Source: a virus. From it: 64,000 bases of DNA. Location of the stretch: IMG/VR virus record IMGVR_UViG_3300019764_000005, positions 1 through 64,000 of that record; one strand, given 5' to 3'. This document shows positions 9,500 through 56,033 of the stretch, piece by piece; the stretch's first letter is position 1; each line of letters begins with the position of its first letter. The notes under the pieces are model-generated. The model did not search any database, was not told where the DNA came from, and saw only the letters and a program-made list of their open reading frames with translations. The translations under genes were made by a program, and so were the position numbers.

Positions 9500-9569
9500 T
9501 TTCGTCCATTAAAACGGACGATAACAGTCGATGAAAGCACATGAAAAAACGTGCTTTATCTTGGTGTTA
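9500..9569 (-). repeat. 70-bp empty attC-like module, copy 1
   Basis: 69/70 identical to 21505-21574 in inverted orientation. Confidence 0.9.
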
Positions 9570-9926
9570 CCCACCATAATGTGAGTTAAGCACCTCTGTT
9601 ATCTTATGGTCGGTTGGTTCATACCAAAAATCGGCAACTGGAATAGTTTCATTATCATCAGACCAGTTGGTTAAATAAACACCATCACTCTTTTTAACAA
9701 CATCGCAAGTTGCCTCGAGCAGTTCTCCCTTTTGGTACACTATCTTGTGTCCTGGCATTATTTTCACACCGTTCATATCTGTCATTAAAATATTACGGTG
9801 GGTAACATTGTATAAACCCAATTGCTTTTCGTAGGCTTCAACAATGTTTTTTGCTTCTAAGTATTGTCCCTCTGTTATCATATCTTTGTTCTTTTAATTA
9901 CGCAACTGTGTTTATACTTACCGTTA
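9566..9926 (-). mobile_element. TAAC-A-GTTA-B-TAAC cassette 1
   Basis: A arms 9902-9917/9810-9825; central GTTA 9803-9806; B arms 9792-9806/9566-9580. Confidence 0.7.
9567..9881 (-). CDS. cassette-encoded hypothetical protein (weak YopX-like C-terminal half)
   Basis: 104 aa; TDMNGVKI..G motif; stop codon is the TAA of the cassette's terminal TAAC. Confidence 0.6.
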   Translation of the reverse strand: MITEGQYLEAKNIVEAYEKQLGLYNVTHRNILMTDMNGVKIMPGHKIVYQKGELLEATCDVVKKSDGVYLTNWSDDNETIPVADFWYEPTDHKITEVLNSHYGG

Positions 9927-10196
9927 TAGATCCAATTCCTCACCTATTCGTTTTATCAAGTCGAAATGCTTGTTAGATTTGTCAATTAGAGGATATAGTG
10001 AAAGTAAATTTCTTGCCTCACGTAAAAGATTGTCTGAATTCAAAAGGACCTTGTAAATATCTCTTTTGACCTCATCAGGCATCTTTCTCTTATTATTTAG
10101 CCATTGAGATAATTGATGCACAGACTTGCCAATTTTTTCTGCTACAAAGGTGTTTTTTAAACCCTTTTCTTTAATTAAATTTTGAATATTTTCCAT
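9924..10196 (-). CDS. XRE-family helix-turn-helix regulator
   Basis: LIKEKGLKNTFVAEKIGKSVHQLSQWLN HTH. Confidence 0.75.
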   Translation of the reverse strand: MENIQNLIKEKGLKNTFVAEKIGKSVHQLSQWLNNKRKMPDEVKRDIYKVLLNSDNLLREARNLLSLYPLIDKSNKHFDLIKRIGEELDL

Positions 10197-10333
10197 TGTT
10201 CTAATTTTAAGTACTCTGCAAATGTAGGTTAAATTTCATTAACAAAAAACACTTAAACCTTATTTTAAATTAGTCTAAATATGAATTGTATAGTTTTATT
10301 GACATTGTAGATTATTCTTTTTAGATTTGCCAT

Positions 10334-11002
10334 ATGATTAAAAAGAAATTGAAAGTCTGTAGAGGAATTGGGAAAGCTAAAGATTACGGCTGTGGAGATG
10401 ATAAGCTTATTCATAAATATGGCTTATGCACTGGATGTTTTGCTAAATGGCTTTATAATTCAGAAGAAGGACAGCAGGTTCTTAAAAAGAGTGTTTTGCG
10501 AGCGAAAGGGAAAGTTCGCACAGATAATAAGATTAAGCACAATCAAGCCAGGCAAGATATTAAAAAGAAGGCTGAATTTGAAAAAGATCTTCAGACCGAA
10601 GTAAATACTATCGTTAGACTTATTGATGTAGATAAAGGATGTATTAGTTGTGGGCATGGATGGAAAGAAGGTTGGACAAGACAAGCACATGCAGGACATT
10701 ACTATTCTGTAGGATCAGACCCTACTTTACGCTTTAATTTTTTTAATATTTGGAAACAGTGCAGTATTTGTAATAATTTTAAAGGTGGCAACGAAAGAGC
10801 TTATGCTGACGGAATTATAGAGCGTTACGGGAAGATGACTCTTCTGAGGATGAATGGTCTTAAAGCTAAGTATAAAGAAATTCACCTGGCAAAACATGAG
10901 CTTATCGAAAAGATTAAGATTGCCAGGAAGATTAAAAGAGCTATAAAATCTGGTAAAGATTACACCAGAGATGAGTTGAATGACCAATTAGGTATTTATT
11001 AA
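10334..11002 (+). CDS. NinG/Rap-like recombination endonuclease
   Basis: CISCG, AHAGHYYSVG, LRFN and QCSICN motifs. Confidence 0.85.
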   Translation: MIKKKLKVCRGIGKAKDYGCGDDKLIHKYGLCTGCFAKWLYNSEEGQQVLKKSVLRAKGKVRTDNKIKHNQARQDIKKKAEFEKDLQTEVNTIVRLIDVDKGCISCGHGWKEGWTRQAHAGHYYSVGSDPTLRFNFFNIWKQCSICNNFKGGNERAYADGIIERYGKMTLLRMNGLKAKYKEIHLAKHELIEKIKIARKIKRAIKSGKDYTRDELNDQLGIY

Positions 11003-11017
11003 TTTAAAATTTGTAAA

Positions 11018-11314
11018 ATGAAAGACAAAATTCAGCCAGCAGGAAGACCTTTAAATGAAGGCGAAATCGAACAATTAAGAATACAAGAGGTGTGCGCAAA
11101 CAAGCAATACCGAAAAGATCTGGATGTTATTCTTCAGGAAATAAAAGCTTGTCCAGGTTCCAGAGAAAGATCCTTAGCTATCACAAAACTTCAGGAGTGT
11201 ATTATGTGGCTTGGTATGGATCTTAAGCGTTTAAACGAACCTAATCCGTATCCTGAGAGTTATAATCCTAAAAGCTCGGTAATTGAGCCTACTTCGGATG
11301 ATTTAAAACTTTAA
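11018..11314 (+). CDS. Acb2-like helical protein (candidate anti-defence signal sponge)
   Basis: RPLNEGEIEQL and RERSLAITKLQECIMWL motifs. Confidence 0.55.
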   Translation: MKDKIQPAGRPLNEGEIEQLRIQEVCANKQYRKDLDVILQEIKACPGSRERSLAITKLQECIMWLGMDLKRLNEPNPYPESYNPKSSVIEPTSDDLKL

Positions 11315-11346
11315 TCTTTTTTTTAACAAACATTTAATTTTATATT

Positions 11347-53975: not shown

Positions 53976-54362
53976 CGGTAAATTGTATGGCAATGTAATT
54001 TTACGGATTTGAAACACAAAATAACAATATTATGAAATGGAAATTTGAAAAAGAATTTAGGGCAGACCACCCAGAAACAATAGGTGAAACTGATAGAGAG
54101 TTTGACATTGACAATTACAAAGATTGGCTTGAACAAAAGTTAGTAAAATTATTTGCTATACAAGATGTTAGCCAACGAAGTGAACTGTTAGCAATTGCCG
54201 CCCTCGACAAAATTGCACACCCTATTAAACACCTACAAGAAGAAGCTGAAAAGGATGGGTGTAAACTTGATGGATATATGGCAATACAGCTAACACAAGA
54301 TGCTAATTTTTACCAAGAAATTGCAGATAAAGCACTAAAGGCAATTGCTAATTGTGGCTAAC
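53973..54362 (+). mobile_element. TAAC-A-GTTA-B-TAAC cassette 4
   Basis: A arms 53984-54004/54143-54162; GTTA 54167-54170; B arms 54167-54199/54340-54362. Confidence 0.75.
54032..54361 (+). CDS. cassette-encoded hypothetical protein
   Basis: 109 aa; crosses the central GTT in frame and ends at the terminal TAAC. Confidence 0.65.
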   Translation: MKWKFEKEFRADHPETIGETDREFDIDNYKDWLEQKLVKLFAIQDVSQRSELLAIAALDKIAHPIKHLQEEAEKDGCKLDGYMAIQLTQDANFYQEIADKALKAIANCG

Positions 54363-54445
54363 TACTTTATATATTCACTTTTACTTCCTATAAACGTACT
54401 CATACACAGCGGTATAAGCGGTAAATTTATAAAAAAACCAATCTC

Positions 54446-55375
54446 ATGAAACACATCATTTTAAGCAGCTCAATGACTACGGCTCTTGGTTTATTTGTTT
54501 GTGATGATGAAATACTCACCGTAGATCATTGTCCGAAGTATGCTAAAGCAAGGCACATAGGCGACGAATCCATAGTGGATAAGGATTCTAAAAGTGTTCT
54601 TCAGAAAAAATACTTCAGGACGCAATGTCTTGGTACTTACAAGGATGGTGAGTGTCTTAACGATCTTCCAAGGCTTAGTAATAAATCCAAGGGTGTCGAG
54701 CAGAAAAGAATCGATTTGCAAGTTTTGGAATATCATAAGCTTATAGCAGAACGAAACATCAACGTAAACATCTACAACACCAACATGGCTTTAATAGCTT
54801 TTTTTGGACAAATTGAGATTGGGGATGATGATTATTCTGTGTGGCTTAAGGATGAGATTAGCATCTTCCCTACAGTGGTTGATTATTCTGATTTTGCCAT
54901 GGTCGATCTTGAACTTACTCGGGATGTTTACAATGACTTCTTTGCTCCTGGGCAGGTAAGGAAAGTTTCTGGTAGTTGTTGGGGCTCTCCTCAGTACATT
55001 GCTAAGAACAAACCTTTATTCTCTCACTACATTGTCCGAAATATGGATAAGGACCACATTTTAAGGCTTAATGCAGACAATACTGAGAAGGTTGAAGCTC
55101 TTATTACCGATCAAGTTATCAGGCTGTCTAAGGATGCTAAATTCTACTACATTGTATTTGGTCACACTTCAAGCAAGTCTAACAAGAAGCAAACTCGGGT
55201 TGTAAAGTATGAGTGGAACAAGAAAAGATCATCTCTCCTTGACGAACTGGTAAGTAAGGCTCTTGACATATACATGGAGAATAAAGTTAATGGTTGGGTG
55301 GCTAATCCTATCTCAGAAATATGTAATAAGTGTCCTTTAGAATGTGAGTTAAAGGACAAGGATATTGAAATTTAA
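54446..55375 (+). CDS. PD-(D/E)XK/Cas4-like nuclease fold protein
   Basis: HCPK near the N-terminus, MVDLEL core and C-terminal CNKCPLEC; sits in the recombination cluster. Confidence 0.5.
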   Translation: MKHIILSSSMTTALGLFVCDDEILTVDHCPKYAKARHIGDESIVDKDSKSVLQKKYFRTQCLGTYKDGECLNDLPRLSNKSKGVEQKRIDLQVLEYHKLIAERNINVNIYNTNMALIAFFGQIEIGDDDYSVWLKDEISIFPTVVDYSDFAMVDLELTRDVYNDFFAPGQVRKVSGSCWGSPQYIAKNKPLFSHYIVRNMDKDHILRLNADNTEKVEALITDQVIRLSKDAKFYYIVFGHTSSKSNKKQTRVVKYEWNKKRSSLLDELVSKALDIYMENKVNGWVANPISEICNKCPLECELKDKDIEI

Positions 55376-55387
55376 TCTTACAATGTT

Positions 55388-55582
55388 ATGATATTAGAAT
55401 TTGGCAAATATAAGGGATTGAGCATTTATAGTGTTGCAGATGATGATCCAAGCTATGTTATATGGCTTGCTCAAGAAACTAATACTGATGTTCCATTAGA
55501 TGCTATAGCGTGGGCTAATGATGCTATGATGGAGCCTGATTATGAAGATTTACATGGAGATGATTGGGGTTGTAGGGATTGA
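55388..55582 (+). CDS. small FGKYKG-motif (DUF3820/ExoX C-terminal-like) protein
   Basis: LEFGKYKG...DPSYVIWL. Confidence 0.7.
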   Translation: MILEFGKYKGLSIYSVADDDPSYVIWLAQETNTDVPLDAIAWANDAMMEPDYEDLHGDDWGCRD

Positions 55583-55650
55583 ATGTGAGTTTAAAAATAA
55601 AGATATTGAAATTTAATTGGAACCGCTCTTTAAAAAAGAGCACAAAATTA

Positions 55651-55979
55651 TAACGTTGAGCGTTTTGGTAGTTGGGATTTTGAAAGACTACCCTACCAAA
55701 TATTGATAACTTTAAATAGAAATACGATGAAACAAAATAACACAGAAACCCAATTACCTAAACATATTGTTAGCACCCGTTACTTAGATGACGATGTTGT
55801 GCTAACCACAGATGATGAGTTCTTCTTTTATTGGGAGGTTAAAAAGCACAAACTTACAGTAAAAGAAAAAGCTACAGATAAAGAAGCTGCTGAATATAGA
55901 AAGGAATTTGCGTATTGGCAAAAAGAAGAACAGGAAAACCAAACTGCTGCAAATTACGGTAGTAGTTATGGGTGCTAAC
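55651..55979 (+). mobile_element. TAAC-A-GTTA-B-TAAC cassette 5
   Basis: A arms 55661-55676/55749-55764; GTTA 55769-55772; B arms 55769-55784/55964-55979. Confidence 0.75.
55727..55978 (+). CDS. cassette-encoded hypothetical protein
   Basis: MKQNNTETQLPKHIVSTR...; crosses GTT in frame and ends at TAAC. Confidence 0.6.
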   Translation: MKQNNTETQLPKHIVSTRYLDDDVVLTTDDEFFFYWEVKKHKLTVKEKATDKEAAEYRKEFAYWQKEEQENQTAANYGSSYGC

Positions 55980-56033
55980 TACTTTATATATTCACTTTTA
56001 CTTCCTATTGACATGATTATTAAATAATATTAC

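Follow-up and report, generated by a model that had tools for sequence, protein, structure and literature searches.

What are the five paired-repeat elements, each framed by the tetranucleotides TAAC and GTTA, that lie in a 64,000-nucleotide stretch of viral DNA, and could they be the exchange sites of a gene-capture system carried by a phage? The stretch, referred to here as the window, covers positions 1–64,000 of a virus record of 72,154 bases (IMG/VR record IMGVR_UViG_3300019764_000005; 37% G+C; estimated to be ~68% complete). Integrons are the textbook device of gene capture and shuffling and are seen as bacterial, integrase-linked and dealing in whole, promoter-less genes; their attC sites measure roughly 57–141 nucleotides (nt), with outer boxes RYYYAAC/GTTRRRY and a short variable loop. 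An earlier note, which had described the five elements from the letters of the window, took them for attC-like mobile cassettes. Here, our analysis favours, with somewhat better than even confidence, the reading that the TAAC...GTTA elements are attC-like sites folding as single-stranded DNA (ssDNA) in an integron-like system of the Bacteroidota, chiefly of the Flavobacteriaceae. The system works like an integron and is not a classical integron, because it departs from the latter in loop size, in the RYYYAAC/GTTRRRY consensus and in cargo orientation.

All five units share one order, hereafter the grammar: TAAC, helix A, GTTA, helix B, TAAC. Each was found where the earlier note had placed it and with the arms that it had given. 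Positions below are those of the window, with the 5' arm of each helix before the 3' arm; ORF stands for open reading frame and aa for amino acids.

9566–9926, minus strand: unit 1, opening TAAC at 9926–9923
9917–9902 and 9825–9810, minus strand: unit 1, helix A
9806–9792 (beginning with GTTA) and 9580–9566, minus strand: unit 1, helix B
9881–9567, minus strand: unit 1, ORF of 104 aa starting in loop A, with GTT as valine and the TAA of the last TAAC as stop
20085–21508, plus strand: unit 2, opening TAAC at 20085–20088
20094–20109 and 21407–21422, plus strand: unit 2, helix A with a loop of 1297 nt
20136–20936: unit 2, loop-A cargo, PAPS-reductase-like gene
20939–21317, plus strand: unit 2, loop-A cargo, frameshifted nucleoside 2-deoxyribosyltransferase-like gene
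21425–21441 and 21492–21508, plus strand: unit 2, helix B with a 50-nt loop without an ORF
52154–52933, plus strand: unit 3, opening TAAC at 52154–52157
52163–52201, plus strand: unit 3, helix A, a local hairpin of 14 pairs with bulges
52204–52232 and 52906–52933, plus strand: unit 3, helix B of 25 pairs with internal loops
52266–52886, plus strand: unit 3, cargo, DNA methyltransferase-like gene of 206 aa
53973–54362, plus strand: unit 4, opening TAAC at 53973–53976
53982–54011 and 54136–54164, plus strand: unit 4, helix A of 26 pairs with bulges
54167–54200 and 54339–54362, plus strand: unit 4, helix B of 21 pairs with internal loops
54032–54361, plus strand: unit 4, ORF of 109 aa, with a head (aa 1–46), a body (aa 47–109) and the junction GTT as Val46
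55651–55979, plus strand: unit 5, opening TAAC at 55651–55654
55662–55682 and 55743–55763, plus strand: unit 5, helix A
55769–55784 and 55964–55979, plus strand: unit 5, helix B
55727–55978, plus strand: unit 5, ORF of 83 aa with an in-frame GTT as valine and its stop at the last TAAC

The span from TAAC to GTTA ranges from 54 nt in unit 3, through ~120 nt in units 1 and 5 and 197 nt in unit 4, to 1343 nt in unit 2, and the short A hairpin and long B arms previously ascribed to unit 3 were borne out. The opening TAAC doubles as the stop of a helix-turn-helix (HTH) gene (9924–10196) in unit 1 and of an exonuclease gene (53262–53975) in unit 4, and the ORFs of units 1, 4 and 5 have their start codon in loop A, a valine codon at GTT and their stop in the TAA of the closing TAAC. 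The attC order R''-L''-loop-L'-R' with imperfect inverted repeats is present in all five units and in a right-hand module described below, and the outer boxes of units 2 and 3 fit RYYYAAC/GTTRRRY (GCCTAAC/GTTAGGC). Two earlier statements stood in part. Arms do vary between units while pairing is kept, but sequence is not wholly free, as the A arms share a motif after TAAC; and of the cassettes said to be scattered singly (at 9.6, 20–21.5 and 52–56 kb), units 1 and 2 indeed stand apart whereas units 3–5 form a 4-kb cluster.

Two features of unit 2 deserve separate mention. Its second cargo gene (20939–21317) is split into frames of 75 and 63 aa, an apparent frameshift or sequencing error, and a perfect inverted repeat of 14 base pairs (bp; 20149–20162/21353–21366), the top score of the genome-wide inverted-repeat scan, encloses both genes of loop A and may be a nested closing helix.

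Could chance inverted repeats in an AT-rich genome, picked out by eye, produce this picture? TAAC and GTTA alone carry no weight, because each is present ~300 times per strand (303 and 306 copies, respectively, in the 72,154 bases). Unanchored inverted repeats scoring 11–12 are also common, with 88 within 1.6 kb of each other, and units 3 and 4 have ungapped B cores of 8 bp that are unremarkable when taken alone, their score being reached at 8.7% of sites. However, when a helix was anchored on every TAAC (596 sites, both strands) and its partner was sought 1.5 kb upstream, a GTTA...TAAC helix scoring at least 11 was found at only six sites, which correspond to units 1, 2 and 5, each detected from both strands. 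For helix A, 598 GTTA-anchored searches (partner within 1.5 kb, G–T pairs allowed) matched the score of unit 5 at two sites, of unit 2 at three, of unit 1 at nine, of unit 4 at 93 and of unit 3 at 186. The best A partner within 1.5 kb began 5–7 nt past TAACG in four of the five units, although TAACG was not a search criterion. Shuffling, proposed in the earlier note as a check, set the observed sequence clearly apart: a strict ungapped scan for the whole grammar returned four units, where 60 dinucleotide shuffles gave 0.37 on average and never more than 1, and grammar at the strong level was seen in three units and in none of the 60 dinucleotide-preserving shuffles. Unit 3 fails the strict ungapped scan and passes when bulges are allowed. 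Together with the recurrence of the grammar in unrelated contigs, these counts leave chance with a negligible probability for the set as a whole, and for units 1, 2 and 5 a chance origin is already refuted.

Further order is seen at the edges of the units, where variable sequence abuts constant sequence exactly at TAAC; one flank occurs twice and another three times.

21505–21574, plus strand: right-hand module common to units 1 and 2, inverted copy at 9500–9569
52934–52961, plus strand: constant 28-nt flank, directly after the last TAAC of unit 3
54363–54390 and 55980–56007: copies of the 28-nt flank after units 4 and 5, respectively
52127–52158, plus strand: palindromic hairpin and ACAAAATTATAACG, running into the first TAAC of unit 3
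55624–55655: copy of the palindromic hairpin, 97% identical, running into unit 5
43420, 44446 and 57745: weaker copies of the palindromic hairpin, without TAAC

After units 1 and 2, the repeat extends over 78 nt and is 95% complementary between its two copies, which lie 12 kb apart in inverted orientation. The shared module is itself a small TAAC-spacer-hairpin-spacer-GTTA site (stem 21517–21523/21534–21540, GTTA 21549–21552, 48 nt from TAAC to GTTA), and in its predicted ssDNA fold, TAACA and TGTTA pair to enclose the inner hairpin. The copies of the 28-nt flank after units 3 and 4 are alike for ~75 nt. Elsewhere, between two early genes, a small hairpin of the form GTTG...TAAC (46503–46529, plus strand; 11 pairs with a tetraloop; ssDNA z −3.6) has a 3' arm that resembles the B arm of unit 1 and may be an empty or minimal B element.

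Is the grammar confined to this phage? With the head of the unit-4 protein as a probe, four viral and 16 metagenome loci were retrieved, several of which carry the full grammar with quite different arms. At one of them (L012:893), 25-nt A arms stand 168 nt apart and are followed, one base on, by GTTAGCGGTA...TACCGCTAAC and then GG, with a B helix of 10 bp. Two contigs (L013 and L016) contain head-to-tail rows of three to six units of 300–450 nt, in which one TAAC(G) both closes a unit and opens its successor. Alignment of 22 sites revealed the motif that follows TAAC, namely G(G/T), 3–6 nt, GTAT(A/G)(A/G), 4–8 nt and TTGCG. The site pattern of unit 1, a 17-base motif (TAACGG-N3-4-GTATAA-N5-GTTGC), had 42 exact matches in IMG/VR, of which five are without downstream DNA, leaving 37 testable. 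In 19 of these 37 viral stretches an A partner scoring at least 10 was found, usually 72–88 nt downstream and reading GCAAT....TTATAC, with GTTA within 0–3 nt and then a B helix of 9–19 bp ending in TAAC. Pairing arms of different loci gave no valid null for this count, the A arms being homologous across loci, and was set aside. The A helices of unit 1 and of a unit in L016 (L016:3126) end identically, and four central positions are changed on both arms without loss of pairing; with the pairs read by hand, these are compensatory changes. The same site family is present on the sense strand of Polaribacter phage P12002L (L194), where the sites surround two methyltransferase genes (gp35 and gp54), a Mom-like gene and small ORFs; the predicted fold there pairs GGTAAC with GTTACC around an inner hairpin. 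A sequence of ~70 nt is repeated after the closing TAAC at about 29240 and 37265 of P12002L (minus strand, after gp35 and gp53), in parallel to the constant flanks of the window. The five units are members of a widespread site family.

The family extends to bacteria, where the unit-1 site pattern matched at least 120 stretches in a collection of genomes from 185,579 species. Among the bacterial matches listed, 68 of 80 titles are Bacteroidota, of genera that we take to be nearly all marine Flavobacteriaceae. The 80 bacterial loci examined included 33 with at least one complete unit, 13 with at least two and seven with at least three. These units have A loops of 60–80 nt and B loops of 300–1300 nt and thus consist of a compact hairpin site and one gene, the sites separating the genes. 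In one complete genome (G005), the sites lie within a 27-kb one-strand gene run headed by a tyrosine recombinase of 377 aa, and in another (G006), a 38-kb one-strand run is headed by a recombinase of 395 aa that is 37% identical to the former. The best model for both was NF040815, 'site-specific tyrosine recombinase/integron integrase' (229 bits for G005 and 214 bits for G006; cut-off 220), followed by TIGR02249 for integron integrases (207 and 193 bits, short of the cut-off of 265). Homologues with 44–62% identity were found in four of 120 8-kb bacterial loci, and in all six cases the recombinase gene and the site motif are on different strands, with the recombinase gene 3' of the motif. The search for a co-occurring tyrosine recombinase, suggested together with the attC-like reading, ended in Xer/IntI-like enzymes at the head of bacterial arrays of the same site family, and the attC-like reading gained support from the 42 viral and at least 120 bacterial stretches that carry the unit-1 motif. 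As a separate observation, one contig (L126) of a metagenome-assembled genome labelled Saccharibacteria carries two complete units of the Flavobacteriaceae type and may be misbinned or a phage contig.

Which strand folds, and does it fold as DNA or as RNA? For this test, helices were scored symmetrically and polarity was set by the sequence motif alone. In 36 distinct viral units, we counted 909 Watson–Crick, 90 G–T, 11 A–C and 33 other pairs, and in 64 bacterial units 1737 Watson–Crick, 191 G–T, nine A–C and 72 other pairs. Taking the longest ORF of each B loop that measures 240 nt or more as its cargo, we found 14 of 15 viral units with the cargo on the strand that folds, against 50 of 63 bacterial units with the cargo opposite it. 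The same single strand is selected to pair in phages and bacteria, and in bacteria it is not the messenger.

Because phage genes lie on the folding strand, we at first favoured a structure in messenger RNA (mRNA), in which two closed domains per small transcript would set translation or protect the ends, and the reassortment of modules would merely reflect selection against crossovers within helices. This explanation is in keeping with the sense orientation of 14 of 15 phage units, with the ~9% of pairs that are G–U-compatible, as in functional RNAs, and with the start codon in loop A and the stop in the last B pairs of units 1, 4, 5, L012:893 and L013:1935. We dropped it as the leading reading in view of the G–T strand bias and the antisense bacterial cargo: the same family with the same bias (191 G–T against nine A–C) is antisense in 50 of 63 bacterial units, and because the bacterial sites are antisense to their cargo genes, an mRNA role is not the general function. 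It further leaves the recombinase at the array head unexplained, and an Rfam scan of the record returned three tRNAs and no other family. We consider mRNA structure an improbable explanation of the sites, although a further RNA-level role in phages may exist. Since the pairing strand is antisense to bacterial cargo and sense in phages, folded ssDNA is the common denominator and the reading that fits both settings, as it does for integron attC sites.

Strand-specific structure could also point to non-autonomous single-strand transposons of the IS200/IS605 kind, inserted beside a fixed TAAC and bearing subterminal hairpins, and both the TAAC at either end of the units and the constant flanks that start at TAAC are compatible with such elements. 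Helices A and B, however, are long-range and unlike each other rather than two similar subterminal hairpins, the record yielded no Y1 transposase match, and the enzyme at the head of the bacterial arrays is a Xer/IntI-type tyrosine recombinase and not an HUH enzyme. We therefore regard this alternative as very improbable.

What would the sites exchange? The unit-4 protein has 31 homologues in a collection of 5.8 billion proteins, of which 23 match by the head only (the first 35–55 residues), six by the body only (the last 60–75), one by both and one is a fragment. Both the alignment and the raw sequences show divergence beginning directly after Val-Ser (or Val-Asn), that is, GTTAGC. At least 15 unrelated tails follow the one head, and three other heads precede the one body, so that relatives of the unit-4 protein reassort at GTTA, in line with the attC-like reading. 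Exchange at the site would swap protein bodies behind a retained head, because the ORFs begin in loop A, run through GTT as a valine codon and terminate at the closing TAAC. A bolder proposal, to which we give somewhat less than an even chance, is that phages of Flavobacteriaceae build proteins combinatorially at an integron-like site: a loop-coded head would be joined in frame at GTT (valine) to the body of the next cassette, so that one recombinase event exchanges the functional end of a small protein, probably one that serves host takeover or anti-defence, with the cargo deliberately placed on the folding strand.

Along the folding strand, the site has the following anatomy. One half of the outer (R-type) box is xxxTAAC and the other half GTTAxxx. 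After xxxTAAC and a spacer of 5–9 nt, helix A forms the inner (L-type) box with a variable loop, separated from GTTAxxx by a further spacer of 1–5 nt. Helix B joins the first bases of a segment (GTTAxxx) to its own end (xxxTAAC), as cassette ends meet in an excised circle. This anatomy, its departure from chance, its recurrence, the strand bias, the tie to bacterial recombinase arrays and the reassortment of protein modules are observed; we infer that a recombinase cuts the folded strand, that the crossover falls at G|TT of GTTA, and that the five units of the window have moved in the past. The enzyme would be supplied by the host or by a co-resident element, and an array-type host tyrosine recombinase exchanging segments at G|TTA is our candidate, a proposal that draws on the attC-like order and on the predicted folds pairing TAACA with TGTTA in the shared module and GGTAAC with GTTACC in P12002L. 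Such exchange would explain both the reassortment at the valine codon and the near-identical site modules after different cargos; chromosomal integrons likewise carry near-identical attC repeats.

A different exchange mechanism has to be weighed here, in which a Sak-type protein, an exonuclease and NinG/Rap of the phage would carry out relaxed homologous recombination at short boundary sequences, the hairpins being terminators or regulatory sites. The phage does encode a Sak-like annealing protein, an exonuclease and NinG, constant flanks of 28–78 nt border the units, and the conserved A-arm motif could act as a microhomology. According to Arbiol et al. 2010 (PMC2839356) and Comeau et al. 2014 (PMC4122927), such shuffling is documented for the PeSL (promoter/stem-loop) cassettes of T4-type phages. 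Their repeated regulatory modules sit beside small accessory phage genes and delimit the segments that are swapped, and the repeated flanks here (28-nt flank in three copies, 78-nt module in two, hairpin in two to five) may be comparable. PeSLs, however, are sequence repeats (promoter and terminator) that use homologous recombination, whereas the present units have module-specific complementary ends, a one-strand pairing bias and, in bacteria, a tie to a tyrosine recombinase. Microhomology needs no complementarity between a module's own left and right edges, and homologous recombination predicts neither the one-strand G–T bias nor the bacterial recombinase link. We judge it unlikely, albeit less so than an mRNA structure.

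How, then, does the integron-like reading compare with known systems? As in integron attC sites and in clusters of attC sites lacking an integron integrase (CALINs), the order of boxes is kept, conservation is stronger in structure than in sequence, a single strand folds, each segment starts with the complement of its own end, units form head-to-tail rows, and a stop codon often lies in the ...TAAC box. As in CALINs, there is no integrase nearby. The units differ from attC sites in that their loops, of 60–1297 nt, accommodate promoters, start codons or entire genes, and in that the helix of the outer box comprises 8–25 pairs instead of about seven. The RYYYAAC/GTTRRRY consensus is retained in part only, the strand that folds also bears the phage cargo, and reading frames continue across the junction. 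The integron rule of cargo opposite the folding strand holds in bacterial arrays (50 of 63) and fails in phage units, and the linked bacterial recombinases, at 207 and 193 bits, stay below the 265-bit TIGR02249 cut-off for integron integrases.

Phage CALINs and the gut arrays termed rAID-1 are already known from published work. Qi et al. 2023 (PMC9892861), who quote the GTTRRRY consensus, applied IntegronFinder and HattCI to 10,705 phage genomes and obtained 17 CALINs, one of them, with methyltransferase genes, in P12002L, the phage that carries the present site family; of six phage attC sites tested in E. coli, five were recombined by IntI1, including one of two from P12002L. According to Ross et al. 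2019 (10.1101/471110), rAID-1 arrays of gut Bacteroidales chromosomes are stores of immunity genes, with an XerD-family tyrosine recombinase first, followed by many co-directional low-GC genes with integron-like intergenic repeats. The Flavobacteriaceae arrays of the site family have the same recombinase-first, co-directional layout, whereas the window, with dispersed units and no recombinase, does not; the description of rAID-1 gives neither phage copies nor a site anatomy. The accessible parts of PMC9892861 and 10.1101/471110 do not describe gene-sized loops, the two-helix unit, inverted phage cargo or junction-crossing ORFs, and our literature search, whose coverage did not extend to subscription journals, found no paper on such Flavobacteriaceae arrays or in-frame junctions.

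Has any relative preserved a site without its cassette? The earlier note had proposed a search for such empty alleles, and none was found at the five positions in phage records, viral contigs or partial reads. A blastn search of 51500–56500 against 50,697 phage records matched the methyltransferase ORF only (~80% identity), with no hairpins at those matches. Searches with the protein of 54446–55375 and with the large terminase brought up no viral relative, viral_contigs contained no exact copy of the 24-nt right flank, alignment of the C module found no viral locus, the A domain of unit 1 gave chance-level blastn matches only against phage records (E about 5), and tblastn against phages found nothing for the proteins of units 1 and 5. 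For the unit-4 protein, tblastn gave a match, via the body only, in an Acinetobacter phage. A 19-nt piece of the shared module matched one contig (L007), a match we attribute to chance since it lies inside an unrelated coding region. The record is contained in 11 public DNA runs labelled as microbial-mat metagenomes, with no RNA run among them; the Logan contigs compared with the window (X4–X7; low-depth, short and of partial coverage) contained short pieces identical to the window and pieces of other organisms, and showed no joint at TAAC/GTTA and no empty-site bridge.

With regard to the methyltransferase-like cargo of unit 3, the matched stretch (52265–52896; ~80% DNA identity) recurs in Cellulophaga phages phi19:1 and phi19:3 and in 37 Flavobacterium phage records, where its flanks are unrelated to those of unit 3. 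Two genes upstream of the methyltransferase, phi19:3 has a PAPS-reductase gene, which echoes the cargo of unit 2.

The missing relatives and empty alleles are one of several points that weigh against an integron-like system. Cargo orientation in the phage is the reverse of that in the bacterial arrays, the ORFs span the supposed crossover, unlike classical cassettes, and loops of 60–1297 nt go far beyond the 57–141 nt of attC sites. The outer boxes of units 1, 4 and 5 retain TAAC/GTTA only (GGGTAAC, GGCTAAC and TGCTAAC, respectively). When folded as ssDNA, A domains with large loops do not surpass shuffled sequence (z −1.1 to −1.5), and the only folds that stand out are unit 2 B (z −4.8) and the small hairpin at 46503–46529. 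Clustering of viral units at the DNA level gave 12 pairs alike in A and B, three alike in A only and none in B only, so that DNA-level reassortment is thin. The constant flanks start at TAAC, whereas integron logic puts the crossover at G|TT, and exchange at G|TTA leaves unexplained the 28-nt flank of units 3–5, which starts with TAAC and has no visible GTTA partner, the folding of loops of up to 1.3 kb, and the inversion of phage cargo relative to bacteria. The P12002L site recombined by IntI1 may or may not be one of those mapped here. Finally, in agreement with the earlier statement that no integrase is recognisable in the window, the incomplete record yielded no recombinase of its own: there was no Phage_integrase, Resolvase or Y1_Tnp match in its 72,154 bases and no complete integron (intI with adjacent attI and promoter), and a recombinase was also not found in four related viral records, all incomplete.

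If the integron-like reading holds, integron logic would operate in a virulent-type phage of an under-studied phylum, with gene-sized loops and with reading frames that run across the junction. Were the exchange real, it could account, by a concrete mechanism, for the mosaic 'ORFan' regions that marine phages carry, would open a route for accessory-gene traffic between host arrays and phages, and would be a natural means of exchanging protein modules at one defined codon. The traffic route gains relevance from the methyltransferases among the cargo and from an anti-defence-like Acb2/Tad1 gene ~1 kb from unit 1.

We take the phage itself, which is uncultured and of a marine type, to infect Bacteroidota, probably Flavobacteriaceae, an assignment made because its sole DNA-level match among the 50,697 phage records (blastn) is through one gene, in Cellulophaga and Flavobacterium phages. 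The record encodes a portal, a large terminase, a virion protein, GroEL, DnaB, a sliding-clamp-like protein and small HTH proteins, with the Sak-like gene at 56365–57483, the exonuclease gene at 53262–53975 and the NinG/Rap gene at 10334–11002. The latter, for a junction endonuclease, is followed by a gene with the Acb2/Tad1 hairpin domain (together 10334–11314, plus strand; ~0.4–1 kb from unit 1), a domain of the anti-CBASS/Thoeris sponge family, and the neighbourhood suggests an accessory or anti-defence islet.

Several minor features complete the description of the genome. Two tRNA-Met genes lie at 5671–5744 and 5859–5932, and a third tRNA (44152–44227, plus strand; Rfam tRNA score 56.8 bits) has a four-base anticodon (aaat) and no amino acid assigned by ARAGORN. 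A nearly ORF-free region of ~1.7 kb (41600–43298), with long pyrimidine-rich runs on the plus strand, separates the leftward structural genes from the rightward early genes and is possibly an origin or control region. A family of 43-nt direct repeats (65–77% identity) at 5511, 39334, 40378 and 41613, upstream of leftward genes, is a candidate promoter or operator motif. Lastly, a 37-nt inverted repeat, 97% complementary over a distance of 21 kb (37243–37279/58277–58313), consists of two GC-rich, terminator-like hairpins with T runs, each at the end of a gene block.

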